From Gemmatimonadales bacterium (GTDB lineage: Bacteria > Gemmatimonadota > Gemmatimonadetes > Gemmatimonadales > GWC2-71-9), in contig JBOHSH010000114.1 of the NCBI GenBank assembly GCA_050733195.1, forward strand, positions 5,389 through 69,388: a stretch of 64,000 nt of DNA, in the 5' to 3' direction. The position numbers and the translations under genes were made by a program. Below are positions 1-53,622 of this stretch, piece by piece. Numbering within the stretch: position 1 is the first letter of the stretch; each line of letters begins with the position of its first letter. The notes below the pieces were generated by a model. That model was not told the DNA's origin. It ran no database searches and was given only the letters and a program-made list of their open reading frames with translations.

Positions 1-532
1 AGCTGCCGGTGACGGCGAGCCAGCCCCCGACCGGCGCGATCGCGAGCGACAGCCCGAGCCAGAAGTGCGGCCACCAGGTAAAGCGCTTGGAGAGGCTGTA
101 GGTCATCACCCACCCGAGGGCGAGCGGGGAGAGCGCGAAGCAGAGCGGGTTCAGCAGGTAAGCGGACCACCCGAAAATCGCCGCGGCCACGGCGACCGAC
201 ACCCACGCCTGCGCCAGCGTCAGCTTGCCCTGGGGCAGCTCACGGATGCTCGTGCGTGGGTTCGCTGCGTCGAACTCGCGGTCGGCGATCCGGTTGAACC
301 CCATCGCCGCCCAGCGCGCCGCGGCGAAGGCGACGGTGACGAGGGCCACGATGCGCGGCGTGACCGGTGCCTGGAAGGAGGCCGCGACCACGCCGAGGAG
401 GGCGAACGGCAGCGCGAAGAGGGTGTGCGGGAGCTTGACGAAGTTGAGGTAGCGAACGAGGAGGGACTCGCCCGCGAGCGTCTGGCCTTCGCGGGGAGAG
501 TTGGAAACACCTGGCAACGCGGGCACGCCCAT
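1..532 (-). CDS. UbiA-family aromatic prenyltransferase (4-hydroxybenzoate polyprenyltransferase-like), C-terminus beyond window edge
   Basis: Absent from the ORF track because it runs off the edge. My translation from ATG 532 gives MGVPALPG..LVRYLNFVKLPHTLFALPFALLGVVAAS..GFNRIADREFDAANPRTSIRELPQG..WPHFWLGLSLAIAPVGGWLAVTG, with a UbiA-type Asp-rich motif and several TM helices. It lies directly downstream of ubiE. Confidence 0.75.
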   Translation of the reverse strand, partial: MGVPALPGVSNSPREGQTLAGESLLVRYLNFVKLPHTLFALPFALLGVVAASFQAPVTPRIVALVTVAFAAARWAAMGFNRIADREFDAANPRTSIRELPQGKLTLAQAWVSVAVAAAIFGWSAYLLNPLCFALSPLALGWVMTYSLSKRFTWWPHFWLGLSLAIAPVGGWLAVTGS

Positions 533-540
533 CTCGCTCC

Positions 541-582
541 CTAGCCCCTAGCCTAGCCCCTAGCCCCTAGCCCCTAGCCCCC
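541..582. repeat. tandem heptamer array (CCCCTAG)n, about 6 units
   Basis: ctag cccctag cctag cccctag cccctag cccctag ccccc read directly. It lies between the ubiE stop and the ubiA-like start. The ubiE stop TAG (567-569) is inside the array. Confidence 0.9.
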
Positions 583-1295
583 TCGTGAATAGCACATACC
601 CCGCCGAGCAGCAGCCGATACCGCACCGAGCCGAATCCCGCCGCTTCGAGGCGCATGCGCAGCCCGTCGGCGTCGGGGAACAGCTCGACCGACGCTGGCA
701 GGTAGGTATACGCGTTTCTATGTTTCGAGATCAGTCGTCCGATCAGCGGCAGCACGCGCCGGAAGTACGCGAGATACACTCCCCGGAGCAGCTGTCGGCG
801 CGGGGTGGTGAACTCGAGGATCACGAGTCGCGCGCCGGGCTTGAGCACCCGCGCCAGCTCCCGGAGGCCGGCATCGAGATCGACGAGGTTCCGCACCCCG
901 AAACCCACCGTCGCGCCGTCGAACGTCCGGTCGCCGAACGGCAGCTCGAGCGCGTCCGCGTTGCACGGCACGACGCGCGCCGCCTTCCCGCGGCCCTGCA
1001 CCAGCATCTCCTGAGCGAAATCGGCGGCGACGACCCGCCCGCGGAACTTGGCGCGATTCGCGAGCTCGGCCGCGAGATCCAGCGTGCCCGCACAGGCATC
1101 CAGGTAGGTGCCGTCCGGCCTCGTTTCGAAGTCCAGACGGTCCACCGTCAGCCGTCGCCACCGGCGATCGAGGTTCGCGCTGAGGAGATGATTGAGGAGG
1201 TCGTACCGGGGCGCGATCGAGCGGAACATCCCCCGCACGTAGTCCCGCTTCTGCGGCCCGCTGGTGACCGGTAACTCCCTGTCCGTGGCGAACAT
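567..1295 (-). CDS. ubiE: demethylmenaquinone / ubiquinone C-methyltransferase
   Basis: 242 aa. Carries the UbiE/MenG N-terminal signature KRDYVRGMFRSIAPRYDLLNHLLS and the SAM-binding site LDACAGTLDLA; length is typical. Confidence 0.9.
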   Translation of the reverse strand: MFATDRELPVTSGPQKRDYVRGMFRSIAPRYDLLNHLLSANLDRRWRRLTVDRLDFETRPDGTYLDACAGTLDLAAELANRAKFRGRVVAADFAQEMLVQGRGKAARVVPCNADALELPFGDRTFDGATVGFGVRNLVDLDAGLRELARVLKPGARLVILEFTTPRRQLLRGVYLAYFRRVLPLIGRLISKHRNAYTYLPASVELFPDADGLRMRLEAAGFGSVRYRLLLGGVCAIHEGARG

Positions 1296-1363
1296 AGCCG
1301 CCGAATGTAGCCCGCCGGGATGCCGGCTGGCAACTCGCCGTCCAGGGCTTCGCGACGCCGGCC

Positions 1364-1996
1364 GTGGCTGAGCCCTCTCCGCCAGGCCAGAGCCCTCTCC
1401 CCGCCGACCTCCGGACCGCCACCGACCAGGAGGTGGTGCGCGAGGCCCGGAAGGGCGCCGACGCCGCGCACCGGGAGCTGGTGCGGCGGTACGAGCGCCC
1501 CGTGTTCTCGCTCATCTACCGGATGGTACGGAACCGCGAGCTCGCCGAAGACCTCTCGCAGGAGACGTTCATCAAGGTCTTGAACGCGCTCGAGTCCTAC
1601 CGCCCCGAGTTCAAGTTCTCGTCCTGGGTCTTCAAGATCGCCAACAACGCGGCGATCGATCACTTGCGCCGGCGCGAGCTCGACACGCTCTCGCTGGAAG
1701 GCTCTCCGCACGCCGAGACTCCGCAGATGATCGAGGCCACCGCGCTCCAGATCGGGGAGCGGGGCGAGACCGCGCTCGAGGCCGTGGAGAACAAGGAGCT
1801 GGGCGGAGAGATCGAGCGCGCCATCGCGAAGCTCCGCCCCGAGTACCGCACCTGCATCCTGCTGCGCCACGTCGAGGGCCGCGCCTACGAGGAGATCGCC
1901 GAGATCCTGAATCTCCCTCTCGGCACGGTGAAGACCTACATCCACCGCGCGCGAAACGAGCTGCGGATCGCGCTCGCACACCTGAAGACCGAATGA
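1364..1996 (+). CDS. ECF (sigma-24 type) RNA polymerase sigma factor
   Basis: 210 aa, GTG start. Region 2 (HRELVRRYERPVFSLIYRMVRNRELAEDLSQETFIKV) and the region 4 HTH (RAYEEIAEILNLPLGTVKTYIHRARNEL) are both present. Confidence 0.9.
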   Translation: MAEPSPPGQSPLPADLRTATDQEVVREARKGADAAHRELVRRYERPVFSLIYRMVRNRELAEDLSQETFIKVLNALESYRPEFKFSSWVFKIANNAAIDHLRRRELDTLSLEGSPHAETPQMIEATALQIGERGETALEAVENKELGGEIERAIAKLRPEYRTCILLRHVEGRAYEEIAEILNLPLGTVKTYIHRARNELRIALAHLKTE

Positions 1997-1997
1997 A

Positions 1998-2037
1998 AGA
2001 ACCCAGAACCCAGAACTCAGAACTCAGAACGCAGAAC
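1998..2037. repeat. tandem heptamer array (AGAACYC)n, about 6 units
   Basis: agaaccc agaaccc agaactc agaactc agaacgc agaac, immediately after the sigma-factor stop (1994-1996). Confidence 0.9.
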
Positions 2038-2092
2038 TTTCAGTTTGGAACGTGAAACCCGCACGTGAACCGTGCCGTACTGGGGGACGCTT

Positions 2093-2683
2093 ATGACGAA
2101 GCGCTGGCCGATTAACCATTTGACGGCGGACGATCTCGACGCGTTTCACTCTGCGTCGTCGACGGTCGAAGCTCGCGTGCACCTCGCCGAGTGTGACGAG
2201 TGCCGCGCGATGGTGGAGATGGATCGCCTCGTGGTCGGGGCGCTGGCCGCTCTGCCGTCATTCGCTCCAGGAGAGGATTTCGCGGATCGCGTGCTCGCGG
2301 GCGTCCGTGCTCCGGCGCCACTGGTCGTGCGAATCCTCCGTCCGGTCGGCCTGGCCGCGCGCGGGCGGCTCGCCGCCGCGGCGGTCCTCGCGATCGGACT
2401 CGGAGCGAGCATCGTCTGGTCTCTCTTCAATCGGGAACTCCTGCTCTCGTGGGTCCAACTCGCCGCCGTGGAAACCGGCCGGGCACTCTGGCTGGGTGTA
2501 CGAGTGGTGGCGACGAACCTGACCTCGCAGCCGTGGTATCTCCCTCTTCGCGAGTTCGCCTCCTCCCCTGGGCGCCTCGTGTTGCTGGTGGGAGGCTCGC
2601 TGGTCGGGTACGTCGTCGCCCTCGTCGCCCTGCGCAGACTGCTCACCCTGCCCTCCGGGCCGGTTTCCCATGTCAACGGCTAG
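2093..2683 (+). CDS. putative zinc-binding (ZAS-type) anti-sigma factor, membrane anchored
   Basis: Has the H-x3-C-x2-C motif HLAECDECRAMV near the N-terminus, followed by hydrophobic segments. It lies directly downstream of the ECF sigma. ATG 2093 is preceded by GGGGGA; the track start GTG 2072 is an alternative. Confidence 0.7.
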   Translation: MTKRWPINHLTADDLDAFHSASSTVEARVHLAECDECRAMVEMDRLVVGALAALPSFAPGEDFADRVLAGVRAPAPLVVRILRPVGLAARGRLAAAAVLAIGLGASIVWSLFNRELLLSWVQLAAVETGRALWLGVRVVATNLTSQPWYLPLREFASSPGRLVLLVGGSLVGYVVALVALRRLLTLPSGPVSHVNG

Positions 2684-3911
2684 CCGCTTTCTGATCGTCG
2701 GGGCGTCGCTTCTCGCGGCGCCCCCCCCGGGCCCGGTCGCGGCCCGCGACCGCGAAAGCCTTCCAGCGTCGCTCGAGCGCCTGCTCGGCCAGCTCCCGTT
2801 CTCCTCGCGGCTCCGCGGCTCCGAGGTCGCGCCCCAGGCTGTTCCGGAGGCCCCGGTGGGGGGCCCGACCGTCGACCTGCAGACCCTCGGCGACCCCGTC
2901 GCCCTCGAGCGCCGGCTGCGTCGGCTCCTCGAGGTCGAGCCGGGGAAGCTCGCGCTTACCGTGGCGGGGGGTCGCGCCCGGCTCGGCGACTTCTCGGTGG
3001 GCTCGAGCGAGACCTTCACCGGCCACCTGCTCGTCCTCCGGGGCCAGCTCGATCTCTTCGGGCGGGTTACGGGCAACGTCGTCTCCCTGGATGGCGACAT
3101 CGTGATGCACTCTGGCGCCACCGTGGACGGCGACGCGCTCGCGCTCGGCGGGCGCATCCAGGACCGGGGCGGGGTCATCCGCGGAGAGCAGCGGGCCCTC
3201 GGCGCCACCCGCGAACCGGTGTCGGCGCCGCGGCCCGCCGCGACGCTCGCGCTGCTTCGTGCGGCCGGGCTCACCGGCGTGCTGCTCACGCTGCTCGTGC
3301 TCGGCGCCGGATGCGTCCTCTTCGCCAGGCCGAACCTCGAGATCGTGTCGGATACGGTGAGCCACAGCTTCCTCCGCTCGTTCTTCGCCGGGCTGCTGGC
3401 CCAGGTGCTCGTCATCCCGACGTTCGGCATGCTGATCACCGGGCTCGTTCTGAGCGTCGTCGGCGTCCTGCTGGTCCCGTTCGTGGTGGTGGCGCTGCCG
3501 CTCCTCGTCCTCGCCGCGGTGGTCGGCGGATTCATCGCGGTGGCCCACGCGATGGGGGAGACCCATCTTCGCCGCCGCATGGCTGCGGGCGTCGTGGTGG
3601 GCTCCGCCAACAGCTACCGGTACCTCGCGATCGGCCTCACGGGCGTGGGCCTGGTCTGGCTGATCTGGGTGGCCTTCGGCTGGGTACCCATCGCGGGCGG
3701 GCTCGTCTTCGCGGTCGCCGCGATCGCCACCTGGCTCCTCGCGACCGTGGGCTTCGGGGCCTGCCTGCTGTCGCGCGCGGGCGTGCAGCCCGGGTTCGCG
3801 GGTCGCTACATCCCGCCGGAGGCGATGACCGACGAATACCTCTGGGCCACTCCCCAGTTCGGCGTCACCGCGGTGAAGCGACCCCCTCCGAAGCAGCGGG
3901 GTGAGCGGTGA
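2670..3911 (+). CDS. membrane protein with bactofilin-like (polymer-forming beta-helix) domain
   Basis: 413 aa. Signal-like N-terminus, then the repeat region FTGHLLVLRGQLDLFGRVTGNVVSLDGDIVMHSGATVDGDALALGGRI. The C-terminal half is several TM helices. It overlaps the anti-sigma stop by 14 nt. Family assigned from memory. Confidence 0.55.
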   Translation: MSTASRFLIVGASLLAAPPPGPVAARDRESLPASLERLLGQLPFSSRLRGSEVAPQAVPEAPVGGPTVDLQTLGDPVALERRLRRLLEVEPGKLALTVAGGRARLGDFSVGSSETFTGHLLVLRGQLDLFGRVTGNVVSLDGDIVMHSGATVDGDALALGGRIQDRGGVIRGEQRALGATREPVSAPRPAATLALLRAAGLTGVLLTLLVLGAGCVLFARPNLEIVSDTVSHSFLRSFFAGLLAQVLVIPTFGMLITGLVLSVVGVLLVPFVVVALPLLVLAAVVGGFIAVAHAMGETHLRRRMAAGVVVGSANSYRYLAIGLTGVGLVWLIWVAFGWVPIAGGLVFAVAAIATWLLATVGFGACLLSRAGVQPGFAGRYIPPEAMTDEYLWATPQFGVTAVKRPPPKQRGER

Positions 3912-4768
3912 CACGTCCTGTTCCCGGCGCGCTGCTCGCTCTCTCCTGGCTCGCCGCCGCGCCTCTCGCCGCGCAGACGATGCGCGAGTTCAGCTACGAA
4001 CGGGGGCTCCGGGGCGAGCGACGGCTCCGCGCCGTGATCGAGTTCGCCGCCGGCTCGCTGCTCCTCCGGGCCGCGCCGCGCGAGCGGCTCTACGGGTTCT
4101 CCCTCCGCTACGACGCCGACCGGTTCGAGCCGGTGGGCACCTTCGATCCGAAGGGCGGCGAGGTACGGCTCGGCGTCGAGAGCACGCGGCGCGGAGGCGT
4201 ACGAGTCGGGCGGAAGGACGCGCTGCCGCAGACGGCGGTGGTGGAGCTCGCGGCGGAGGTCCCGCTCTCGGTCGACCTCTCGCTCGGCGCGGCGGAAAGC
4301 CTGGTCGAGCTGGGCGGCCTCTCGCTCACCGATCTCTCGCTCAAGACCGGCGCCAGCCGGACCGAGGTGCGGTTCTCCACGCCCACGCGGGGGGACTGCC
4401 GTAATGCCTTCGTCGCTTCGGGTGCCGGCGAGGTCGAGATCGTCGGTCTCGGCAACAGCAGGTGCCGCTACTGGCGATTCGACGGCGGCGTCGGCGCCGT
4501 CACCGTCGACCTGGCCGGGGCCTGGACCGCCGATGCGCGGCTCGTGATGGAGATGGCGCTCGGGGGCACCACGCTGGTGATGCCCCGCGAGCGGGGGCGG
4601 GGCATCGGCGTGCGCATCAAGGTGAGCGGCTTCCTCGCGGGATTCGAGGGGTCCGGCTTCCAGAAGCGCGACGGGGCCTGGTACTCGCCCGGATACGACC
4701 GCGCCGGGCACAAGGTGGACGTGCAGGTGACCGGCGCGCTGGGCGGCGTCAAAGTGGAGTGGAAATAG
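3908..4768 (+). CDS. secreted beta-rich protein (LiaF/DUF2154-DUF4097 toast-rack-like), hypothetical
   Basis: 286 aa. Signal peptide LSWLAAAPLAAQ, C-terminus ..GHKVDVQVTGALGGVKVEWK. GTGA start/stop overlap with the upstream gene. The domain call is tentative. Confidence 0.5.
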   Translation: MTRPVPGALLALSWLAAAPLAAQTMREFSYERGLRGERRLRAVIEFAAGSLLLRAAPRERLYGFSLRYDADRFEPVGTFDPKGGEVRLGVESTRRGGVRVGRKDALPQTAVVELAAEVPLSVDLSLGAAESLVELGGLSLTDLSLKTGASRTEVRFSTPTRGDCRNAFVASGAGEVEIVGLGNSRCRYWRFDGGVGAVTVDLAGAWTADARLVMEMALGGTTLVMPRERGRGIGVRIKVSGFLAGFEGSGFQKRDGAWYSPGYDRAGHKVDVQVTGALGGVKVEWK

Positions 4769-4821
4769 GAACAAGGGTCTCGACTGGCCGCGAAGGACCG
4801 ATTCCACTACGTTGGGCCCCC

Positions 4822-5364
4822 ATGCGCGGACTCGTGCTGACCTCCCTCAAGCAGTTCGTGACCACGACCCTCGGCGAGCCGGCGTGGACCCAGCTCCTCG
4901 CCGATGCCGGCCTCGAGGGAAAGCTTTATCTGGTGAGCGATACCTATCCCGACGAGGACGTGGTGGGCCTCGTCACCGCGGCGTCCACGCGCACCGGCAT
5001 CCCCGCGCCCGACCTGGTCCGGAAGTTCGGAGAATTCCTGGTGCCCGGGCTCGTGCACACCTACCGGGCGTTCATCAAGCCGTCCTGGCGCACGCTCGAC
5101 TTCATCGCCGAGGTCGAGGACCACATCCACAAGGCGGTGCGGCTTCGCGAGCCGGAAGCGGCGCCGCCGCGCCTTCGCGCCACCCGCACCACTCCCACCC
5201 AGGTCGTGGTGCACTACGATTCGCCGCGACGCCTCTGCCCGCTGGCGGAAGGAATCGTGGCCGGCGTCGCCGCCCATTACGGCGAGCGCGTGAACATCAC
5301 CCAGACCAGCTGCATGGTCCGCGGCGATCCCGCCTGCGTTCTGGTGGTGGATCTGGTCGCCTGA
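4822..5364 (+). CDS. stand-alone H-NOX (haem NO/O2-binding, HNOB) domain protein
   Basis: 180 aa from ATG 4822, which is residue 121 of track ORF 4462..5364. It aligns by eye to Tt H-NOX and the sGC beta N-terminus: MRGLVLTSLKQFV, proximal His in EVEDHIHKAV, AAPPRL, and haem-propionate motif Y-x-S-x-R (HYDSPRRL). Confidence 0.85.
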   Translation: MRGLVLTSLKQFVTTTLGEPAWTQLLADAGLEGKLYLVSDTYPDEDVVGLVTAASTRTGIPAPDLVRKFGEFLVPGLVHTYRAFIKPSWRTLDFIAEVEDHIHKAVRLREPEAAPPRLRATRTTPTQVVVHYDSPRRLCPLAEGIVAGVAAHYGERVNITQTSCMVRGDPACVLVVDLVA

Positions 5365-5384
5365 GCCGTTGGCTCCCCGGCTCC

Positions 5385-6509
5385 CTAAGAGATCACCGGC
5401 AGCGAGAAGGTCCGGGACCTGGCCTCGGCGTGGACACGCTCCGCGACCGAAAGGAGCGCGAGGGAGGCAATGCTTCCCGGATCCGCGACGAGGGCCGGCC
5501 GGCCCTGATCGGCGGCCTCGGCGAGGCCCGGCGACAGAGGTACTTCGCCCAGCAGCGGCACGCCGAGCTCGTCCGCCAGGCGCTTCCCGCCGCCCTCGGC
5601 GAAGAACGCGAACCGCCGGCCGGTCTCGGGGTCGGTGAAGCCGCTCATGTTCTCCACGATGCCGAGCACGGGCACGTTCACCCGCTCGAACATCTTCGCG
5701 CCCTTGAGCGCGTCGCCCACCGCCATCTCCTGCGGCGTGGTCACGATGATCGCGCCGCCCACGAGCACCGACTGCACCAGCGAGAGCTGCGCGTCGCCGG
5801 TGCCGGGAGGCATGTCGACCAGGAAGTAATCGAGCTCGCCCCACTCCACGTCGCGCAGGAACTGCTGGATCACCTTCATGATGATCGGACCGCGCCAGAT
5901 GGCGGGCGCATCGCGCTCCACCAGGAACCCGATCGACATGAGCTTGACGCCGTGCGCCTCGAGCGGCTGGATCCGCCCGCCCACGACCATGGGCCGGTCG
6001 AAAGTCCCGAACATCAGCGGGATGTTGGGACCGTAGATGTCGGCGTCCATGAGCCCGACGCGGAAGCCGAGCCGGGTGAGGCCGATCGCGAGATTCGCGG
6101 CGACCGTCGACTTTCCGACCCCGCCCTTTCCCGAGCTCACCGCGAGCACCCGGCCGAGCTGGGCGATCTCGGTCGGGACCGGAGCGGGCACCGCTCCCGT
6201 CGATTGCGGCATCGCGCCGGGCGGGGCGCCCGGCGGAGCGTGCGTGGTGCGCGCCGGGCCGGCGGGATCGGTGACGGTGATCTTGACCGCCTCCGCCTTC
6301 ACCCCCTCGACCGCCTTCACCGCCGCGCGGGCTTCTCGCACCAGGGTGGCCGGATCGTCTTTGGCGAGGAGGAAGCTGAAGCTCACCCGGCCATCGTCGC
6401 CGACGGCGAGGTCGCGGATCATGCCCGCAGAAAAGACGTCGTTGTCGAGGCGGGGATTCCGGATGCGGGCGAGGGCGGCGAGGACGCGCGCCTCGAGCGA
6501 CTCAGTCAC
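5385..6509 (-). CDS. apbC: Mrp/ApbC/NBP35-family P-loop ATPase (Fe-S cluster carrier type)
   Basis: 374 aa. DUF59/MIP18-like N-terminal domain, deviant Walker A SSGKGGVGKST, and DMPPGTGD. There is no cysteine anywhere in the protein, so the CxxC motif is missing. Confidence 0.85.
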   Translation of the reverse strand: MTESLEARVLAALARIRNPRLDNDVFSAGMIRDLAVGDDGRVSFSFLLAKDDPATLVREARAAVKAVEGVKAEAVKITVTDPAGPARTTHAPPGAPPGAMPQSTGAVPAPVPTEIAQLGRVLAVSSGKGGVGKSTVAANLAIGLTRLGFRVGLMDADIYGPNIPLMFGTFDRPMVVGGRIQPLEAHGVKLMSIGFLVERDAPAIWRGPIIMKVIQQFLRDVEWGELDYFLVDMPPGTGDAQLSLVQSVLVGGAIIVTTPQEMAVGDALKGAKMFERVNVPVLGIVENMSGFTDPETGRRFAFFAEGGGKRLADELGVPLLGEVPLSPGLAEAADQGRPALVADPGSIASLALLSVAERVHAEARSRTFSLPVIS

Positions 6510-22905: not shown

Positions 22906-23853
22906 GTGGACCTGCCCACGCACGAGCCGTGGGTCTGGGGGGCGTTCACCGCCCTCGTCGCGGTACTGCTGGTCCTCGACCTCGGGGTCCTCAACCGGCG
23001 GTCGCACACCCTCACGATGAAGGAGTCCACGACCTGGAGCGCCGGGCTCATCACCCTGGCGCTCCTGTTCGGGCTCTTTCTCCTCTGGCAGGAGGGCACC
23101 ACCTCGGCGCTCGAGTACTACTCGGGGTATCTCATCGAGCTCTCGCTCAGCGTCGACAACCTGTTCGTCTTCCTTCTCATCTTCCAGTACTTCGCGGTGC
23201 CCGCGGAGCTCCAGCCGCGGGTGCTCAAGTGGGGGATCATGAGCGCGGTGGTCCTGCGCGGAATCATGATCACCCTGGGCGCGCTCCTCCTCGAGCGTTT
23301 CCACTGGATCACCTGGGTCTTCGGCGGCATCCTGCTCCTCACCGGCATCCGGATGCTCCGGGTCGAGGAGATCCGGATCCAGCCGGAGAGGAATCCCCTC
23401 GTCAAGCTGGTCCGCCGGTTCGTGCCGGTGACGCCCGCGTACGAAGACGCGCACTTTCTCGTCCGCACCCTGGTGACGAAGAGATGGATGGCCACGCCGC
23501 TCCTTCTCGTGCTCGTCGTGGTGGAGTGGAGCGACATCGTGTTCGCGATCGACAGCATTCCGGCCATCTTCGCCGTCACCAAGGACCCGTTCATCGTCTA
23601 CAGCTCGAACGTCTTCGCCATCCTGGGCCTCCGCGCGCTCTACTTCGTTCTGGCGGGGGCGATGGACCGCTTCACCTACCTCAAGCCCGCGGTCGCGCTG
23701 ATCCTCGTCTTCGTGGGGATCAAGATGACCACGAGCGTCTGGATCCACGTGCCGACCCCGATCTCCCTGATCGTGATCGTGAGCCTGCTGGCGATCGGGG
23801 TGGCGGCGTCGCTGCTGAAGCCGCCGGACCGGGAGACCGCCAGCCCCGGATGA
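22906..23853 (+). CDS. TerC-family integral membrane protein (Alx/MeeF-like putative Mn2+ exporter)
   Basis: 315 aa. YSGYLIELSLSVDNLFVFLLIF and ..VVEWSDIVFAIDSIPAIFAVT.DPFIVYSSNVFAILGLRALYF are the duplicated TerC motifs. It starts immediately after the htpX stop. Confidence 0.9.
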   Translation: MDLPTHEPWVWGAFTALVAVLLVLDLGVLNRRSHTLTMKESTTWSAGLITLALLFGLFLLWQEGTTSALEYYSGYLIELSLSVDNLFVFLLIFQYFAVPAELQPRVLKWGIMSAVVLRGIMITLGALLLERFHWITWVFGGILLLTGIRMLRVEEIRIQPERNPLVKLVRRFVPVTPAYEDAHFLVRTLVTKRWMATPLLLVLVVVEWSDIVFAIDSIPAIFAVTKDPFIVYSSNVFAILGLRALYFVLAGAMDRFTYLKPAVALILVFVGIKMTTSVWIHVPTPISLIVIVSLLAIGVAASLLKPPDRETASPG

Positions 23854-25006
23854 CCCGTTCACCCCCCGTTCCCCGTTCCCCGTTCCAGGCCAGGATCCCC
23901 CCGGCGAGATTAGCCACGTTGGTGAACCCGGCTCCCCGGAGCTGGTCGGCCGCCTTCGCGCCGCGCACCCCCGCCTTGCAGTAGACCACGATGGCCCGGT
24001 CGCGGGGGAGCGACGGGAGGTGGTCACCGAGGACGCCGAGCGGCACGAGACGGGCCCCCGCGATTCGGCCGGTCGCCCACTCCTCCGGCTCCCGGACGTC
24101 GAGGAGAAGGGGCGGGTCGCCGGCCGCGAGAGCGGCCTCGAGCGCTTCCGGCTCGATCCATTCGCCGGTGCCGGCCGGCTCGGGCGCGTCGCAGGCGTAG
24201 TGTTCATCCCGGAGCTCGCGGATCTCGCGCGTGCCGCAGGCCGGACAGGCGGGGTCCTTGCGCACGCGCACCGTCCGGAACTCGAGGTCGAGCGCGTTCA
24301 CGAGGAGGAGCCGTCCCACGAGCGGCCGCCCCGCGCCCAGCAGGAGCTTGATCGTCTCGGTCGCCTGGATGGTTCCGATCAGGCCCGGCAGCACCCCTAA
24401 CACGCCGCCTTCGGCACAGCTCGGCACGGAGCCCGGCGGCGGCGCGGTCCGGAAGAGGCAGCGGTAACAGGGCCCGCCGGCCACGCCGAAGACCGACGCC
24501 TGGCCCTCGAACCGGAAGATGCTCCCGTAGACGTTCGGGATCCCGAGGATCACGGCCGCGTCGTTGACGAGAAAGCGCGCGCCGAAGTTGTCGGTCCCGT
24601 CCACGACGACGTCGTAGCCCTCCAGCAGCTCGAGCGCGTTCCCGGCGGTGAGCAGGGTCTCGTGGCATTCCAGCCGGACGTGCGGGTTCACGTCGGTGAG
24701 CCGCCGGCGTGCCGAGGCGAGCTTGGAGCGGCCGACGTCGCTCGTCCCATGGAGCACCTGCCGTTGCAGGTTGCTGAGCTCGACGGCGTCCGAATCCACC
24801 AGGCCGAGGCGCCCGACACCCGCCGCGGCGAGGTAGAGCGCGAGCGGCGAGCCGAGCCCGCCGGCGCCCACGATCAGGACGCTGGAGCGCTTGAGGCGGA
24901 GCTGGCCCTCGGCGCCCACCTCCGGCAGGATGAGGTGGCGGTCGTATCGCACCAGCTCCTCCCGGGAGAGCCCGGGCCAGGGCCGCGCGGCAGTCGCGGT
25001 GGTCAT
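23720..25006 (-). CDS. MoeB/ThiF-type sulfur-carrier adenylyltransferase fused to rhodanese (MoeZ-like)
   Basis: 428 aa. YDRHLILPEVG..VLIVGAGGLGSP, CYRCLF..CAEGGVLG, and a rhodanese domain with VVYCKAGVRG. The last roughly 55 residues after ..GGILAW read through the heptamer array and overlap terC antisense; this tail is probably non-native. Confidence 0.85.
   Translation of the reverse strand: MTTATAARPWPGLSREELVRYDRHLILPEVGAEGQLRLKRSSVLIVGAGGLGSPLALYLAAAGVGRLGLVDSDAVELSNLQRQVLHGTSDVGRSKLASARRRLTDVNPHVRLECHETLLTAGNALELLEGYDVVVDGTDNFGARFLVNDAAVILGIPNVYGSIFRFEGQASVFGVAGGPCYRCLFRTAPPPGSVPSCAEGGVLGVLPGLIGTIQATETIKLLLGAGRPLVGRLLLVNALDLEFRTVRVRKDPACPACGTREIRELRDEHYACDAPEPAGTGEWIEPEALEAALAAGDPPLLLDVREPEEWATGRIAGARLVPLGVLGDHLPSLPRDRAIVVYCKAGVRGAKAADQLRGAGFTNVANLAGGILAWNGERGTGGERVIRGWRSPGPAASAATPPPRSPAGSRSRSGRSGSARGSRRSWSS
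23854..23886. repeat. tandem heptamer array (CCGTTCC/CCGTTCA)n, about 4.5 units
   Basis: cccgttcaccccccgttccccgttccccgttcc, directly after the terC stop. It is translated as ..NGERGTGGER.. within the antisense moeZ-like ORF. Confidence 0.85.
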
Positions 25007-25010
25007 CGCG

Positions 25011-25289
25011 TCATCCTCCCGCGACGGCCGGAACGACCGTGACGACGTCGCCGTCCCGGAGCGGTGTCGAGAACCCGCCGAGGAACCGGGCGTCCTCGTC
25101 GTTGACGTAGAGATTCACGTGGGGATAGACGTCGCCCTTCGCGTCGCGCAGCCGCTCGGCGAGCGCGGGGTATCGGCGTCCCACCTCGCTCACGACCTCG
25201 CCGAGCGTCCGGCCGTTCGCCTGGAGCGTCGAGGCGTTCTCCGCGTGCCGGGCGAGCACCGTGGGGACCTGCAGCGTAATCGGCATCAC
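25011..25289 (-). CDS. MoaD/ThiS-family sulfur carrier protein (C-terminal GG)
   Basis: 92 aa, ending ..DGDVVTVVPAVAGG. ATGA overlap with the upstream ThrC-like gene. Confidence 0.8.
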   Translation of the reverse strand: MMPITLQVPTVLARHAENASTLQANGRTLGEVVSEVGRRYPALAERLRDAKGDVYPHVNLYVNDEDARFLGGFSTPLRDGDVVTVVPAVAGG

Positions 25290-26659
25290 ACCCTCCTGGT
25301 GTCGTTGTTGATCGCGTCGCCGCGGCGTTCCGCGTCATCCGCGTTCCTGGTGTTTCCCTCCGGGGATCCCGCCACGCGGAGCGCGTCCGAGAGCCGCGGG
25401 GCGATGACGGGCATGTCGAGCAGACGCTTCGGCACCGCGTCGGGCGTCTTGAGGCCGTTGCCGGTGATGCAGAGCACGACCTCGTCCTCCGGGCCGAGCC
25501 GGCCCGCCCCGGAGAGCGCCAGCGCGGCCGCGACGGTCACCCCACCCGCCGTCTCGGTGAACACGCCGGTCGTCCGGGCGAGGAGCGCGATGCCCTCCGC
25601 GAGCGCCTCGTCGCTCACCGCCGCCGCCCACCCTCCGCTCGCGCGGATCGTCCGGGCCGCGGCCGCGCCGTCCGCGGGCGAGCCGATCGCGAGCGACCGC
25701 GCGATCGTCCTCGGCGTCACCGGCCGGAGCGGTCCCCCGCCCCGCCAGACCAGGTCCACGATGGGCGCGCATCCCGAGGCCTGCCCGCCGAAGATCCTGG
25801 GCGCTTTCCCGTCGGCGAGACCGGAGGCCACGACCTCGCCGAAGCCGCGACCGAGCTGCGAGACGAGCGACCCGCCGGCCATCGGAGCCACGACCGCCGA
25901 CGGCGTCCGCCATCCGAGCTGCTCGGCGATCTCGAACGCGGTGGTTTTGGATCCCTGCGCGTAGTAGGCCCGCAGGTTCACGTTGACGATGCCCCATCCG
26001 ATGCGGTCCGCGAGCTGGGCGCAGAGCCGGTTCACGTCGTCGTACGTGCCGCGCACCCGGACGACGCGGGCGCCGTAGACCGCCGAGGCGACGAGCTTGG
26101 GCGCCTCGAGATCGTCCGGCACGAAGATCCAGGCCGGGAGCCCGGCCCGCGCCGCATGCGCCGCGACCGCATTCGCCAGGTTCCCGGTGGACGCGCAGGC
26201 CAGCGTGTCGATGCCGAACCCCACGGCGGCGTTGATGGCGGCGGCGACGACGCGGTCCTTGAAGGACAGTGAGGGGTGGGAGACGCCGTCGTGCTTGATC
26301 CAGGCGCGCGCGACGCCGAGCGCGCGGGCGAGGGCGGGCCCTTCGACGAGCGGCGTGAAGCCGGTGTCGAGCGAGAGCACCGGATCGCCCGCGAACGGCA
26401 GCCATTCCCGGTAGCGCCAGAGCGATCGCGGGCGGGCCGCGATCTCCTCGCGGGTGGGAAGCGCCCGCGCGGGATCGTACTGCGGCTCGAGCGGGCCGAG
26501 ACACTCCGCGCAGACGGCCACCGGCGAGGCCGGCTGAACGGTCCTGCACGCATCACAGCGGAGGGGGAGCGGACGAGGAAGTCCGGTCGGGGCGGAGCGG
26601 CCGAGCCTGGCCGCCTGCGTGATGGGGGGAGGTGCTGCAACGAGCAGATGCGAAGACAT
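25286..26659 (-). CDS. threonine synthase-family PLP enzyme with N-terminal zinc ribbon (ThrC or MetM-like)
   Basis: 457 aa. CDACRTV..CAECLGPLEP zinc ribbon and PLP-lysine motif HPSLSFKDRVVAAAIN, in a ThrC-type fold. Confidence 0.85.
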   Translation of the reverse strand: MSSHLLVAAPPPITQAARLGRSAPTGLPRPLPLRCDACRTVQPASPVAVCAECLGPLEPQYDPARALPTREEIAARPRSLWRYREWLPFAGDPVLSLDTGFTPLVEGPALARALGVARAWIKHDGVSHPSLSFKDRVVAAAINAAVGFGIDTLACASTGNLANAVAAHAARAGLPAWIFVPDDLEAPKLVASAVYGARVVRVRGTYDDVNRLCAQLADRIGWGIVNVNLRAYYAQGSKTTAFEIAEQLGWRTPSAVVAPMAGGSLVSQLGRGFGEVVASGLADGKAPRIFGGQASGCAPIVDLVWRGGGPLRPVTPRTIARSLAIGSPADGAAAARTIRASGGWAAAVSDEALAEGIALLARTTGVFTETAGGVTVAAALALSGAGRLGPEDEVVLCITGNGLKTPDAVPKRLLDMPVIAPRLSDALRVAGSPEGNTRNADDAERRGDAINNDTRRV

Positions 26660-26720
26660 GAGCCGGCTCCCTGCTCGCGAGCCGCCGTCTCATGCACCGG
26701 AAACACAGAGCGCCCGGTGC

Positions 26721-40393: not shown

Positions 40394-41560
40394 TCACACA
40401 CTCGCCGCCGCGACGCTGCTCGACACCACCCGATTCCGGCCCAGCGCCTTGGCGTGATACAACCTGGCGTCGGCGATGTGCACGAGGTCGTCGGTGTTGT
40501 CGCCGTCCGTGGGCCAGCAGGAGACTCCGGCACTCACGGTGATCCGGACCCGGTCTTCCCGCCGCGGCACCTTGATCGCCTCCTCGGCCACCGCCTGCCG
40601 GATCGCCTCGATCCGGCTCCGCGCCGCATTGAGCGTCGTCTCCGGCATCACCACGACCATCTCCTCGCCGCCGTAGCGCGCGACCAGATCGCTCCGGCGC
40701 ACCTCCCGCTGCAGGATCGCCGCGACCGTCCGCAGGGCGACGTCGCCGGTGGCGTGGCCGTAGGTGTCGTTGAACCGCTTGAAGTGGTCGATATCGATCA
40801 TCGCCACGGCGAACGACCGGAGATAGCGCTTCGAGCGCCGGATCTCGGCGTTCAGGAATTCCTCGAGATACGCCCGGTTGAAGAGTCCCGTGAGGCGATC
40901 GGTGTTGGACTCCTGCCGGAGCCTCTGCAGGCGGACCACCACGGCGGCGCAGATGCCGGTCATCACCGCGAGCAGGATGAGCCGGGAGAGCTGGTCGATC
41001 CAGGCGAACCGGCCGTAGGGCCAGGGAGCCCACCGGATCGAGTCGAGATCGTGGGCGCCGGCCCACAGCACGATGATCAGATACTGCAGGAAGGCGGTGC
41101 CGCCGGCGATCACCGTCAGGCGGAAGTCGTAGCGGAGGCAGGTCCCGGCGATCGCGAGGAAGTAGAGCTCGAACGCAATCCGGTTGTTCACCGCCCGGAT
41201 CGGCTCGCCGATCACGCCGAGCGCGAGCAGCGCGAAGCTCACCAGCGAGACGTCGAGCAGCACGCTCGCCATCGGGACCCACGGCCGCCGGATGCCGCGC
41301 TCGAGTGCGAGCGAGGCGACCAGCGCGATCAGCGCGGCGAAGAGCGTCACCGCCACGCTCACGTAATGCGGACCCCGGGTGCCCGGCGCCGCGACGATCA
41401 GGTTGACGAGGGGATTCGCCACCAGCAGTGCGACCAGTCCGAGCCGCACCTTCGCGATCCAGGTCTCCGCGCTCAGCCCCGCATCGATGAGGTAGGCGTC
41501 GGGAGGCGTCCAGAGCCGCGTGATCTCGGCGCGGAGCCAGGGCAGGAGATCGCGCATCAC
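40394..41560 (-). CDS. membrane-anchored diguanylate cyclase (GGDEF domain, GGEEM variant, I-site present)
   Basis: 388 aa. About 6 N-terminal TM helices, then DRLTGLFNRAYL.., DIDHFKRFNDTYGHATGD and RRSDLVARYGGEEMVVVMP (RxxD five residues before GGEEM). The GTG start overlaps the ETF-QO stop (GTGA). Confidence 0.88.
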   Translation of the reverse strand: MMRDLLPWLRAEITRLWTPPDAYLIDAGLSAETWIAKVRLGLVALLVANPLVNLIVAAPGTRGPHYVSVAVTLFAALIALVASLALERGIRRPWVPMASVLLDVSLVSFALLALGVIGEPIRAVNNRIAFELYFLAIAGTCLRYDFRLTVIAGGTAFLQYLIIVLWAGAHDLDSIRWAPWPYGRFAWIDQLSRLILLAVMTGICAAVVVRLQRLRQESNTDRLTGLFNRAYLEEFLNAEIRRSKRYLRSFAVAMIDIDHFKRFNDTYGHATGDVALRTVAAILQREVRRSDLVARYGGEEMVVVMPETTLNAARSRIEAIRQAVAEEAIKVPRREDRVRITVSAGVSCWPTDGDNTDDLVHIADARLYHAKALGRNRVVSSSVAAASV

Positions 41561-43194
41561 ATCAACCGGTAGGTGGGACCGCTGCCCCCCTCCCGGGGAG
41601 TCCAGCGCGGGCCGAGCACGTCGGTCGCCTTACAGTCCACGCAGTTCGACGCGTTCACCCGGAGCGTGCCGTCGGGATGCCGCTCGTAGACGCCGGCCGG
41701 GCACACGTGGGTGTAGAACTCCGCCACTTCGGGCGTCACGTCCCGGCCCACCAGGAGGTGTGACGGCATGGTGTCACGGGTGGCGTTTCCCGACTTGAAG
41801 ACCGCGTCGACCTTGCTGAAAGTGAGCCGGTTGTCCGGCGGCGGCGAGGCAGCGGGACGGGCGGGCCGGCGCGGCTCCGCCGCATCGGTCGCCGTGCCGA
41901 AGCGCCAGCCGGGGAATCTCCCGCCGGTCAGGGTCATCAGTCCGGCCTCGAGCCCGGCGCGCACGAACCCGTGCTTGAAGGCGAGCCGCATGTTGCGGGT
42001 GCGCCGCAGATCGCTGACGATAGGGCTTCGTCGGATGAGATCGTCGTAGGCCGAGAGATCGGTCCGCCCGGCCGTGAGGGCGGCGAATGCGGCGCGTGCG
42101 GCAAACACTCCCGATTGCATCGCGTAATGAATCCCCTTGAGGGAGGCGACGTCAACGAGTCCGGCGCAGTCGCCCGCAAGGAGCAGGCCCTCACCCGACA
42201 GTCGTGACGGAAGGCTCCAGTACCCTCCCTCCGGAATCGTCTTCGCCCCCCATTCCAGGAGCTGGCCGCCTTCGAGACGGCTGCGGAAGAAGGGATGCCG
42301 CTTCATCCGCTGGAGCAGCTCGTGCACGTCGAACGCGGCGTCGCGGTGGTCGAGTCCGCAGACGATCCCGAGCGCGATCCTGCCCTCCCCCATTGGATAC
42401 ATGAAGGTGCCGCCGAAGCCGTCGAGCGGCACCGGCCATCCCATCGTATGCACCACGTGGTCGAGCGGCCGCGGTACTTCCCACACTTCCTTGACGCCCA
42501 GGGCGAAGATCTGCGGGTTGGGTGACCCGATGCCCTGCCACTCCTGCCAGGCCTGGCTCAACAGTCCGCGGGCCCCCTCGCAGAGCACGGTGACCTTCGC
42601 GGTGAGATCGGTCGGCGGCTGGAAGCCGTCGCCCGGCTCGCCCGTGCGCGTGAGCCCCGACGCGGCCGTGCGCACCCCGCGAACCCTCCGCCCGTCGACG
42701 AGGAGCGCGGCGGCGGGAAAGCCCGCGAAGAGGTTCACGCCGAGCCCTTCCGCCTGCCCACCGAGCCAGCGCACGATCTCGCAGATCGACGCGGTGAAAT
42801 TGCCGTGGTTCCGCATCGTGGGCGGCGTCGGAATCCGGAACGCCCGCGAGGCCGTGAGCAGGTGGACCCGTTCCCGGTCGACGCGCTGCTTGAAAGGGAG
42901 CTCCGCAGCAGGCAGATCGGGGAAGAGCTCGCGAAAGACCCGGGGATTCACGACCGCGCCGGACAGCGAATGCTCACCCAGGCCGGCCGCCTTCTCGAGG
43001 ACGCCGATGGTGAGGTCGCCCGCGGCCGGATCCTGCCGCGCCAGTCGCGCGAGCTCGATCGCGCCCGAGAGTCCGGCCGGACCCGCACCGACGAACAGGA
43101 CATCCAGCTCGATCGCCTCATCGCCGGGCTGCTCGGAGAGGATCAGCCGATCGAGAGGGAGGCGAGGCTGGTAATCCGCGGGCCGGAAGGTCAA
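41557..43194 (-). CDS. electron-transfer flavoprotein:ubiquinone oxidoreductase (ETF-QO)
   Basis: DVLFVGAGPAGLSGAIELARL (FAD site) and the C-terminal 4Fe-4S region HVCPAGVYE..ASNCVDCKATD. The start is uncertain: there is no in-frame ATG near the FAD motif, and TTG 43194 is proposed. The track ORF (GTG 43320) extends through the heptamer array. Confidence 0.85.
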   Translation of the reverse strand: MTFRPADYQPRLPLDRLILSEQPGDEAIELDVLFVGAGPAGLSGAIELARLARQDPAAGDLTIGVLEKAAGLGEHSLSGAVVNPRVFRELFPDLPAAELPFKQRVDRERVHLLTASRAFRIPTPPTMRNHGNFTASICEIVRWLGGQAEGLGVNLFAGFPAAALLVDGRRVRGVRTAASGLTRTGEPGDGFQPPTDLTAKVTVLCEGARGLLSQAWQEWQGIGSPNPQIFALGVKEVWEVPRPLDHVVHTMGWPVPLDGFGGTFMYPMGEGRIALGIVCGLDHRDAAFDVHELLQRMKRHPFFRSRLEGGQLLEWGAKTIPEGGYWSLPSRLSGEGLLLAGDCAGLVDVASLKGIHYAMQSGVFAARAAFAALTAGRTDLSAYDDLIRRSPIVSDLRRTRNMRLAFKHGFVRAGLEAGLMTLTGGRFPGWRFGTATDAAEPRRPARPAASPPPDNRLTFSKVDAVFKSGNATRDTMPSHLLVGRDVTPEVAEFYTHVCPAGVYERHPDGTLRVNASNCVDCKATDVLGPRWTPREGGSGPTYRLM

Positions 43195-48582: not shown

Positions 48583-49409
48583 GCCGGCAGCGCCCGCGCG
48601 AACTTCGAGAACCCGGCTGAGGCGAACCGGCCGAGGCCCGAATCCCAGCGGTGGTGCCGGATGTCGACGGCATCGGGGTCGACGCGGATGACGTTGAAGG
48701 CCGCCGCCCGCTGGCCGCGGGTGCGTTCGGTGTGGGTGCTCGCCGTGCTCACGACCACGCGCCCGATCTGTCCGGCGCCCTCTTGATGATCGTGCCCGCA
48801 CAGCACGACGTCCGCGCCGATCGACTCGAGCCGCCGCTGCGCACGCTTCCAGCGGGCGAGCCCCATCCGGCGCGAGATCTCTCCGCGGAGCACGTTGTGG
48901 TGCAGCACGAGATAGCGTGCCGCGCCCGCCGGGGCGGCGGCGAAGGCGCGGCGCACGCGCCCCACCTCGGAGCCGGGGAGGTGTCCCTTCACGGCCATAT
49001 CGTTGAGGTTCCAGGTCATCGATCCGGACGCGATGCCGTGCGCAGTCAGCGCGCCGACGATCACCGCCCCCGGGATCGTGAGAACGGGGGCGAGCTCGTC
49101 ACCGAAGTAGCGGCGGTATTTCCGGTAGAGCGGCGCGGTGCCGAAGATACCGAACGGGCTCTTCCACCACTCGACGTCGTGATTGCCGGGAATGGTATAG
49201 ACGGGCGCCGAGTCGGCCAGGCGCTTCGCGAACGCGAGCGCGCGCTGGAACTCGCCGTGGCGCGCGCGCTGGGTGAGGTCGCCGGAGAGCACGATGGCTC
49301 CCGGCGAGAGGGTGGGAATCAGCGCCTCGAGCGCCTCGATCTGAACCAGGTCGACATCACGACCGAAGTGAATATCGCCGAGGTGGACGACGGGAACGCC
49401 CGCCGTCAC
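48579..49409 (-). CDS. calcineurin-like metallophosphoesterase
   Basis: 276 aa from GTG 49409 (GTGA overlap with the upstream stop). VVHLGDIHFG, LSGDLTQRA, IPGNHDV, LHHN and CGHDHQ. Confidence 0.8.
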   Translation of the reverse strand: MTAGVPVVHLGDIHFGRDVDLVQIEALEALIPTLSPGAIVLSGDLTQRARHGEFQRALAFAKRLADSAPVYTIPGNHDVEWWKSPFGIFGTAPLYRKYRRYFGDELAPVLTIPGAVIVGALTAHGIASGSMTWNLNDMAVKGHLPGSEVGRVRRAFAAAPAGAARYLVLHHNVLRGEISRRMGLARWKRAQRRLESIGADVVLCGHDHQEGAGQIGRVVVSTASTHTERTRGQRAAAFNVIRVDPDAVDIRHHRWDSGLGRFASAGFSKFARALPA

Positions 49410-50770: not shown

Positions 50771-50827
50771 GATCCTACCCCGTTAGTCCGTTTTCCCGGC
50801 GAAGACCGGGGTTCATGGGGTCGGCCC

Positions 50828-53604: not shown

Positions 53605-53622
53605 TCTCGAAGCCTCTCGCCG

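Follow-up and report, generated by a model that had tools for sequence, protein, structure and literature searches.

Genes for bacterial H-NOX proteins usually adjoin genes for histidine kinases (HK) or for diguanylate cyclases and phosphodiesterases (PMC8738867), and the three-cysteine zinc site of H-NOX proteins can serve as a haem-independent redox or oxidant sensor (PMC8738867). In this work we analysed a 64-kb stretch of DNA from a Gemmatimonadales bacterium (64,000 nucleotides of contig JBOHSH010000114.1, hereafter the window), in which a 180-aa H-NOX protein is encoded behind a four-gene module containing an extracytoplasmic function (ECF) sigma factor. Among the described proteins, HnoX of Shewanella oneidensis (SO2144; structures 2KII, 4U99 and 4U9B) is the best match of the window H-NOX in both sequence and structure; it is likewise a stand-alone protein of ~180 aa with an apolar distal pocket, and it shares His103, Tyr132/Ser134/Arg136, Pro116, Cys139, Cys164 and Cys172 at identical positions, although the two are only ~27% identical in the Foldseek alignment. 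The Shewanella gene is co-operonic with that of the histidine kinase HnoK, whereas the window H-NOX has no adjacent kinase, and the Shewanella His161, to which Gln161 corresponds in the window protein, is presumably the fourth zinc ligand. The H-NOX of Vibrio cholerae, which regulates an adjacent HK, shares the three-cysteine motif and the proximal His with the window protein, for which metal binding or a redox role is putative by this analogy. The H-NOX of Caldanaerobacter (Tt H-NOX, 1U55) has the same fold (TM-score ~0.8) and the conserved His, Pro and Y-S-R residues, but it is an O2-binding domain fused to a methyl-accepting chemotaxis protein (MCP) and uses a W9/N74/Y140 network, while the window protein stands alone and has L9/L73/L141 instead.

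By its sequence and its predicted structure, the open reading frame (ORF) in question is a bona fide stand-alone H-NOX of the Shewanella/Vibrio type:

4822-5364, plus strand: stand-alone H-NOX of 180 aa, assigned by Pfam HNOB, phmmer against the PDB, AlphaFold2 (AF2) with Foldseek, and residue mapping.

The Pfam family HNOB (PF07700) matched this ORF with 129.8 bits against a cut-off of 25.5 (E=1.2e-37), and the match runs over residues 3-160 on profile positions 2-162 of 163, which is nearly the full domain. The first-pass annotation of this DNA had called the protein an H-NOX from its proximal His in EVEDHIHKAV, its Y-x-S-x-R motif in the form YDSPR, and AAPPRL; all three are present in the ORF, and together with the HNOB match they bear the call out. 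In the phmmer search against the PDB, residues 1-178 aligned without gaps to S. oneidensis H-NOX (E~6e-24), with His103 falling on the Shewanella His103, the site of the H103G substitution in structure 2KIL, and on His102 of Tt H-NOX. The Tt reference sequence was checked before alignment and was identical to 1U4H/1U55; its H102, P115, Y131, S133 and R135 correspond to H103, P116, Y132, S134 and R136 in the window protein, and the proximal His103 was invariant across 17 aligned family members. The AF2 model, built from a 17-sequence alignment, reached a mean pLDDT of 90.4 and a pTM of 0.84, its best Foldseek match in the PDB was S. oneidensis H-NOX (4U9B, TM-score 0.89), and the top 47 PDB matches were all structures of H-NOX proteins or of soluble guanylate cyclase beta, so the structure model, which had been suggested as a check, also predicts the H-NOX fold. 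NCBI lists a protein of 100% identity from a Gemmatimonadales bacterium as 'heme NO-binding domain-containing protein'.

The distal pocket differs from that of Tt H-NOX in that W9, N74 and Y140 are replaced by L9, L73 and L141. Because these three positions are hydrophobic in all 17 aligned relatives, the distal hydrogen-bond network is missing in the window protein. The earlier remark that the distal Tyr, Trp and Asn are lacking is therefore correct; as to the selectivity for nitric oxide (NO) which it was taken to suggest, we infer from the conserved haem ligands and the apolar pocket that the protein would bind haem and would show NO-type ligand selectivity. Cys139, Cys164 and Cys172 fall on cysteines of the Shewanella protein in the phmmer alignment, and this triad probably holds zinc. 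The C-terminus also gave a marginal match to V4R in Pfam (31.8 bits against a cut-off of 31) and showed a weak likeness to V4R/MsvR-type Cys motifs (Pfam, NCBIfam). The family is large, with 2,457 cluster representatives at E≤1e-3 in an exhaustive search, the best 150 of which are mostly stand-alone proteins of ~180 aa with a minority of fusions of ~490-870 aa.

We found that the H-NOX gene is not part of the ECF module that precedes it. Five same-strand ORFs (sigma, anti-sigma, p3, p4 and H-NOX) fill positions 1364-5364, and the features around the H-NOX gene are the following:

567-1295, minus strand: ubiE, divergent and upstream of the sigma gene.
1364-1996, plus strand: ECF sigma factor (SigW/RpoE-like), gene 1 of the module, assigned by Pfam and NCBIfam.
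2093-2683, plus strand: membrane anti-sigma factor with an N-terminal HxxxCxxC motif, like that of zinc-binding anti-sigma (ZAS) proteins, assigned by motif and synteny.
2670-3911, plus strand: p3, a 413-aa membrane protein, an ORF at a conserved position in all module loci.
3908-4768, plus strand: p4, a secreted protein of 286 aa and LiaF-C/toast-rack-like type, whose gene closes the module, assigned from the annotation of homologues.
4769-4821, no strand: gap of 53 nt between p4 and H-NOX, left edge of the lineage-specific insertion, assessed by promoter/terminator scan, RNA folding and synteny.
5385-6509, minus strand: Fe-S cluster carrier ATPase of the Mrp/ApbC type, which bounds the variable slot on the right (Pfam ParA/NUBPL E=6.5e-93, and FeS_assembly_P).

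The 53-nt gap and the convergent downstream gene had already been described in the first-pass annotation, and both are confirmed; the H-NOX stop and the mrp stop lie 20 nt apart. For comparison we used 48 related module loci (L129-L176), consisting of L129, L130 and L131 and 45 others obtained from a metagenome scan with a p4 alignment. The first three carry p4 homologues at 74%, 73% and 55% identity, respectively, and present UbiX-UbiD-UbiA-UbiE on the minus strand followed by sigma, anti-sigma, p3 and p4 on the plus strand. In L129 a convergent Mrp-NifU-DHH-permease series begins 12 nt past p4, which is the arrangement of the window minus the H-NOX gene. Positions 6-4764 of the window and those from 5503 onward are collinear with L129 at 76-84% nucleotide identity, and the synteny with both L129 and L130 breaks at ~4764 and resumes at ~5500, thus bracketing the H-NOX gene. 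The four-gene order was kept wherever it was visible in the module loci, across which the sigma factor is unusually conserved (73-94% identity) and the anti-sigma factor falls to 34-75%. In 24 loci the DNA past p4 could be followed for 700 nt or more; none of these carries an H-NOX gene, and 12 have a convergent Mrp after p4. Where Mrp was visible (11 loci), the p4/mrp slot measured 15-111 nt in six and contained 0.5-3.8 kb of unrelated DNA in five. We noted the contents of this slot for L129, L130, L132, L143, L149 and L160; it holds a 143-aa ORF of unknown kind and a DUF3800 gene in L130 and a 154-aa lipoprotein-like ORF in L132, while other loci have 1.5-3.8 kb of other DNA there, and the region downstream of the module also differs in L131. 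No decayed H-NOX remnant was found in the p4/mrp slot of the relatives at E≤10. The module is thus a conserved Gemmatimonadota unit between the ubi operon and an often convergent mrp gene, and the p4/mrp junction is a variable slot in which H-NOX occurs only in the lineage of the window.

The same separation was found from the side of the H-NOX gene. An orthologue with 73% identity lies between an arginase and an aminotransferase gene, one with 69-70% identity between Nramp and MFS transporter genes, two with 51% and 47% identity upstream of an MCP gene, one with ~49% identity between a LysR and an HDOD gene, and one with 46% identity beside a WYL regulator and a ParA-like gene; the ECF module is present in none of the five closest H-NOX orthologue contexts. 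The first-pass annotation had raised the possibility of H-NOX input into the ECF pathway and had proposed a survey of orthologue neighbourhoods; such linkage is absent both from the modules (H-NOX in 0/24, Mrp in 12) and from the contexts of the closest orthologues, which are unrelated to the module (0/5), and this speaks against the proposed input.

We also surveyed the H-NOX clade more widely. An alignment of five H-NOX sequences retrieved no relative from the genome contigs, and a hand-built degenerate DNA pattern spanning W89..R122, validated on the window and eight loci, was used instead. The sample comprised at least 120 genome loci in fixed 8-kb pieces, with some contexts cut off at the edges, from Planctomycetota, Bacteroidota, Gemmatimonadota, Acidobacteriota, Myxococcota and other phyla, and all of these loci encode an H-NOX relative (33-51% identity). 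Contexts were read by clustering of flanking ORFs, by home-made domain hidden Markov models (HMMs) and by Pfam checks; because few seeds went into the home-made HMMs, divergent HK, MCP, EAL, HD-GYP and HDOD domains may have escaped them, a gap that is partly offset by Pfam scans of the nearest neighbours. In these scans, the 58 remaining loci with stand-alone H-NOX genes showed HATPase_c (6), HisKA (5) and REC (3) among the upstream neighbours and Pkinase (3), REC (3), Hpt (3), MCPsignal (2) and HATPase_c (2) among the downstream ones, while about three quarters of them had no recognisable signalling neighbour. A few of the surveyed loci have an adjacent HK/REC, MCP or GGDEF gene; an MCP gene adjoins H-NOX in the Gemmatimonadota relatives L005, L007 and L014, and the partner types seen in the clade as a whole are MCP, HK, GGDEF, Ser/Thr kinase (STK) and ECF systems. 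In a neighbour-joining tree, the window H-NOX falls in a tight clade with two orphan orthologues, which together with the large share of loci lacking a signalling neighbour indicates that orphan status is typical for this part of the family. The earlier description of the gene as an orphan is therefore right in that no kinase, cyclase or MCP gene adjoins it, but this is not unusual in its clade.

Many of the remaining relatives are fused to kinases, as 50 of the 133 sampled H-NOX domains (~40%) form the N-terminal domain of STK fusions of ~500 aa, an example being L024:6139-7644 on the minus strand (HNOB E=9.5e-27, Pkinase E=1.9e-51). These fusions occur among loci L009-L128 in Pirellulales, Kuenenia, Gemmataceae and one Acidobacteriota metagenome-assembled genome (MAG), mostly in Planctomycetota; we searched the literature and found no paper on an H-NOX-STK architecture in this phylum. 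In a Candidatus Kuenenia MAG (L018:4027-6700, minus strand), two H-NOX-kinase fusions stand in tandem and are near-identical in the tree, which suggests a recent duplication or an assembly repeat. Another surveyed contig, labelled Candidatus Nanoarchaeia (L037, JBMFNW010000034.1), is only 2.9 kb long and encodes an H-NOX of ~40% identity; it is probably a mis-binned bacterial contig.

Taken together, we consider it rather probable that the window protein is an independent stand-alone sensor of NO, and possibly of redox state, whose gene was inserted in the variable slot, perhaps with a transcript shared with the module, and whose partner is encoded elsewhere. From the established biochemistry of H-NOX proteins, His103 and the Y-S-R clamp on the propionates would keep ferrous haem in place, NO would bind in the apolar pocket and cause the Fe-His bond to rupture, and the two subdomains would then shift and alter the binding to a partner protein; Cys139, Cys164 and Cys172 could add an oxidant-sensing mode, as in the H-NOX of V. 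cholerae. The juxtaposition with the ECF genes would then be an accident of insertion or relocation, and the two would be coupled at most in expression, through read-through over the terminator-less 53-nt gap. The GC content at third codon positions (GC3) of the H-NOX gene is 0.88, equal to that of its neighbours in a window of ~71% GC, and with this native composition it looks like a resident gene that was relocated, or was mobile in an ancestor, and not like a recent foreign import.

The signalling partner would lie outside the window. The immediate neighbours of the gene are p4 and the convergent mrp and not those of a canonical H-NOX operon, no HK, REC, MCP or STK domain was detected in the 64-kb window with the home-made HMMs, and the ten large window ORFs that we checked were metabolic or unknown. 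One GGDEF protein was found:

40394-41629, minus strand: multi-transmembrane GGEEM diguanylate cyclase, the only GGDEF protein found in the window (Pfam GGDEF E=2.7e-50).

This gene, which the first-pass annotation had named as the only GGDEF gene of the window, was also the only match of the home-made GGDEF HMM there, and it lies 35 kb from the H-NOX gene; to consider it as the H-NOX partner is purely speculative. A remote partner, which had been offered as the fallback to ECF input, remains the best reading. Several points weigh against our explanation. Placing the partner elsewhere is an argument from absence, and only 64 kb of the genome were in view. The shared strand, the 53-nt gap and the lack of a detectable terminator or promoter leave room for co-transcription. 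In addition, a same-strand ECF sigma gene stands just upstream of H-NOX in Hymenobacteraceae and in two further loci, L061 and L101, and because three other lineages juxtapose the two, a general functional affinity between H-NOX and ECF systems retains some standing.

The room left for co-transcription leads to a different account, in which a promoterless H-NOX gene is read through from an autoregulated ECF operon and is an output of this pathway, coupled to it in expression only and with its partner again elsewhere; the sensor would then be produced once envelope stress has activated the sigma factor. We regard this account, the main rival of ours, as possible but unlikely. In the consensus scan, neither a sigma-70-like promoter nor an intrinsic terminator was found on the plus strand at 1200-5600, and the RNA fold z-score of the 53-nt gap (+0.70) shows that the gap contains no stable hairpin. 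The H-NOX gene may thus be read through from the ECF operon, with which it shares its strand, and at its other end only 20 nt separate it from the convergent mrp, a junction that folds no better than shuffled sequence. The position of the Hymenobacteraceae H-NOX genes, after sigma and anti-sigma and before stress-type genes (CMD/AhpD-like, rhodanese and radical SAM), would also fit such an output. However, the consensus scans are weak evidence in a non-model phylum with 70% GC. Within the module, neighbouring genes overlap or lie almost end to end, a spacing that suggests translational coupling, but the H-NOX gene is set apart from them, and since the arrangement is unique to this genome, there is no sign of selection maintaining it. 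We also aligned the ubiE/sigma intergenic regions in search of an autoregulatory promoter, and no ECF-type motif was definable there; the ubiE start and its sigma-70-like promoter on the minus strand account for the conserved blocks. A GGAAC directly follows the p4 stop, with no such motif at hand to compare it with.

A further account reverses the direction, so that the H-NOX would act on the ECF pathway from the cytoplasm: in its NO-bound or oxidised state it would bind either the sigma factor itself or the ZAS-like cytoplasmic domain of its anti-sigma partner, and alter the release of sigma. Apart from the adjacency in the window, and the fact that both the HxxxCxxC motif of the anti-sigma factor and the Cys triad of the H-NOX could be redox-active, the case for it comes from other phyla. 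In 15 loci of Hymenobacteraceae, genes for an ECF sigma factor, an RskA_C-type anti-sigma factor and H-NOX follow one another on one strand, although in four of the 15 the sigma gene lies beyond the 8-kb piece. One of them is:

L099:114-2346, plus strand: sigma, anti-sigma and H-NOX triad of Hymenobacter armeniacus.

The others are L013, L016, L059, L068, L077, L079, L087, L092, L096, L103, L110, L111, L121 and L123. The triad is kept over at least three downstream contexts (CMD-radical SAM(DUF3641)-rhodanese, convergent XseB/XseA, or rhodanese alone). In a locus from Armatimonadetes (L101:878-2273, minus strand) an ECF sigma gene lies directly upstream of a stand-alone H-NOX gene, and in a deltaproteobacterial MAG (L061:83-2235, minus strand) the order is sigma, H-NOX and STK, with the H-NOX gene overlapping the start of the kinase gene; because no anti-sigma gene stands between sigma and H-NOX in either locus, H-NOX occupies what may be called the anti-sigma slot. 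With the window, these make four independent same-strand juxtapositions, which hint that H-NOX proteins of this clade have an undescribed affinity for ECF systems, being co-transcribed with them and acting, when NO-bound or oxidised at the Cys/Zn site, on the anti-sigma or the sigma factor; if true, this would add a cytoplasmic gas or redox input to an envelope-stress ECF pathway. We think there is little chance of this.

For the window in particular, ECF input appears very improbable. The absence of H-NOX from the 24 related modules, and of the module from the five closest H-NOX contexts, argues against it, and two unrelated envelope genes separate the H-NOX from the anti-sigma gene. The Hymenobacteraceae triad resembles the window in that H-NOX lies downstream of a same-strand ECF sigma/anti-sigma pair, but there it follows the anti-sigma gene directly and the linkage holds in 15 species, whereas in the window two genes intervene and the linkage is unique. 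Moreover, the other lineages have different ECF groups, and in Hymenobacteraceae the anti-sigma factors are of the RskA type without cysteines and the H-NOX proteins lack the Cys triad. In the literature searched we found no paper that links H-NOX to ECF or anti-sigma factors, and only the independent sigma/H-NOX juxtapositions of other phyla still speak for a link between H-NOX and the anti-sigma factor.

Finally, a non-signalling role without a dedicated partner, in which the protein would buffer or store haem or NO or would be a thiol/zinc redox protein that carries no haem, could be read from the lack of an adjacent signalling gene in most stand-alone clade members, from the weak C-terminal likeness to V4R/MsvR-type Cys motifs and from the haem-independent redox sensing reported for V. 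cholerae H-NOX (PMC8738867). This role is hardly credible, however. Throughout the family the proximal His, the Y-S-R motif, Pro116 and the hydrophobic pocket do not vary, a sign that selection acts on the sensing of ligands by haem; all characterised bacterial H-NOX proteins act through a partner (PMC8738867); and members of sister clades are joined to kinases in fusion proteins. We also considered that the H-NOX gene was recently acquired by horizontal transfer and rejected this, as its composition, with a GC3 like that of its neighbours, gives no support.

In several Hymenobacter species, genes for CMD (AhpD-like, CxxC) and for radical SAM/DUF3641 proteins occur downstream of H-NOX (e.g. 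L121:4836-5957 and L096:1582-1920), and in the Gemmatimonadetes locus L005 (4498-5882) such genes occur ~4 kb downstream of it. The pairing of CMD/radical SAM genes with H-NOX may be a recurrent association.

By itself the window locus matters little, as it encodes an ordinary H-NOX that is annotated correctly and belongs to a family of sensors already studied in depth. The finding of a lineage-specific insertion, however, guards against over-reading a suggestive ECF neighbourhood, and the survey indicates that the partners of this H-NOX clade range far beyond the textbook set of HK, diguanylate cyclase and MCP. The Hymenobacteraceae triad and the kinase fusions are leads worth following. The Gemmatimonadales MAG is uncultured and unsuited for such work; because cultured strains exist and the linkage is conserved, Hymenobacter is the system in which any link between H-NOX and ECF factors should be tested.

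The genes of the upstream module were also characterised. The sigma factor at 1364-1996 contains regions 2 and 4 only (Pfam Sigma70_r2 E=2.5e-21, Sigma70_r4_2 E=3.6e-19) and passed the NCBIfam model of the ECF superfamily, TIGR02937, with 113 bits against a cut-off of 42.9, in line with its earlier label; its best named NCBIfam matches, SigW and RpoE, were both under their equivalog cut-offs. The anti-sigma gene, which directly follows the sigma gene in all related module loci, probably starts at ATG 2093, whereas the ORF list gives GTG 2072. After mis-called starts in the orthologues had been corrected, the motif HLAECDEC (HxxxCxxC), preceded by (T)KRWPINHLTADDLDAFH, was found to be kept in L129, L130 and L131. 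The only NCBIfam match of the protein was NF052375 'anti-sigma factor', with 31 bits against a cut-off of 100 (E=2.3e-7), and no Pfam family, including zf-HC2, matched at E≤5; since no curated HMM threshold is reached, 'ZAS-like' is a motif-level statement. The ZAS label of the first-pass annotation is thus backed by the motif and the gene position.

The p3 gene overlaps the anti-sigma gene by 14 nt and encodes a protein whose N-terminal region is Gly-rich and beta-solenoid-like and whose C-terminal half has multiple transmembrane segments; no Pfam or NCBIfam family was found for it. It had been labelled bactofilin-like, and we rejected this label: Pfam gave no bactofilin match at E≤5, and a PDB search with a profile built from 13 orthologues retrieved no bactofilin, its best match being an ice-binding beta-solenoid protein (E=0.04). 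The p4 gene overlaps p3 by 4 nt. The p4 protein itself matched LiaF domains only weakly (Pfam LiaF-like_C 12.2 bits against a cut-off of 29, E=0.17; NCBIfam LiaF_C_term E=6e-4), and its earlier label as toast-rack-like draws its support from the homologues, more than 484 of which were found, many of them, at 52-65% identity, with a precomputed PF09922 (LiaF-like_C) or PF17115. The module therefore resembles the ECF/ZAS pairs SigR-RsrA and SigE-ChrR in having an ECF sigma factor and an adjacent HxxxCxxC anti-sigma factor, and through the LiaF_C-like secreted p4 it recalls the LiaF-type toast-rack envelope-stress proteins, but it differs from the pairs in its two extra conserved genes, p3 and p4, and in its sub-threshold anti-sigma factor.

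Two other regions of the window drew our attention. Three consecutive large ORFs of 458, 513 and 464 aa occupy 49406-53622 on the minus strand with a strong coding-type GC3, and none of them matched a Pfam family at E≤1e-5. A ThiF/MoeB-rhodanese fusion adjoins a PLP-dependent (PALP) enzyme at 23720-25114 and 25286-26689, both on the minus strand; the two resemble a biosynthetic pair of the sulfur-carrier type and are unrelated to H-NOX.

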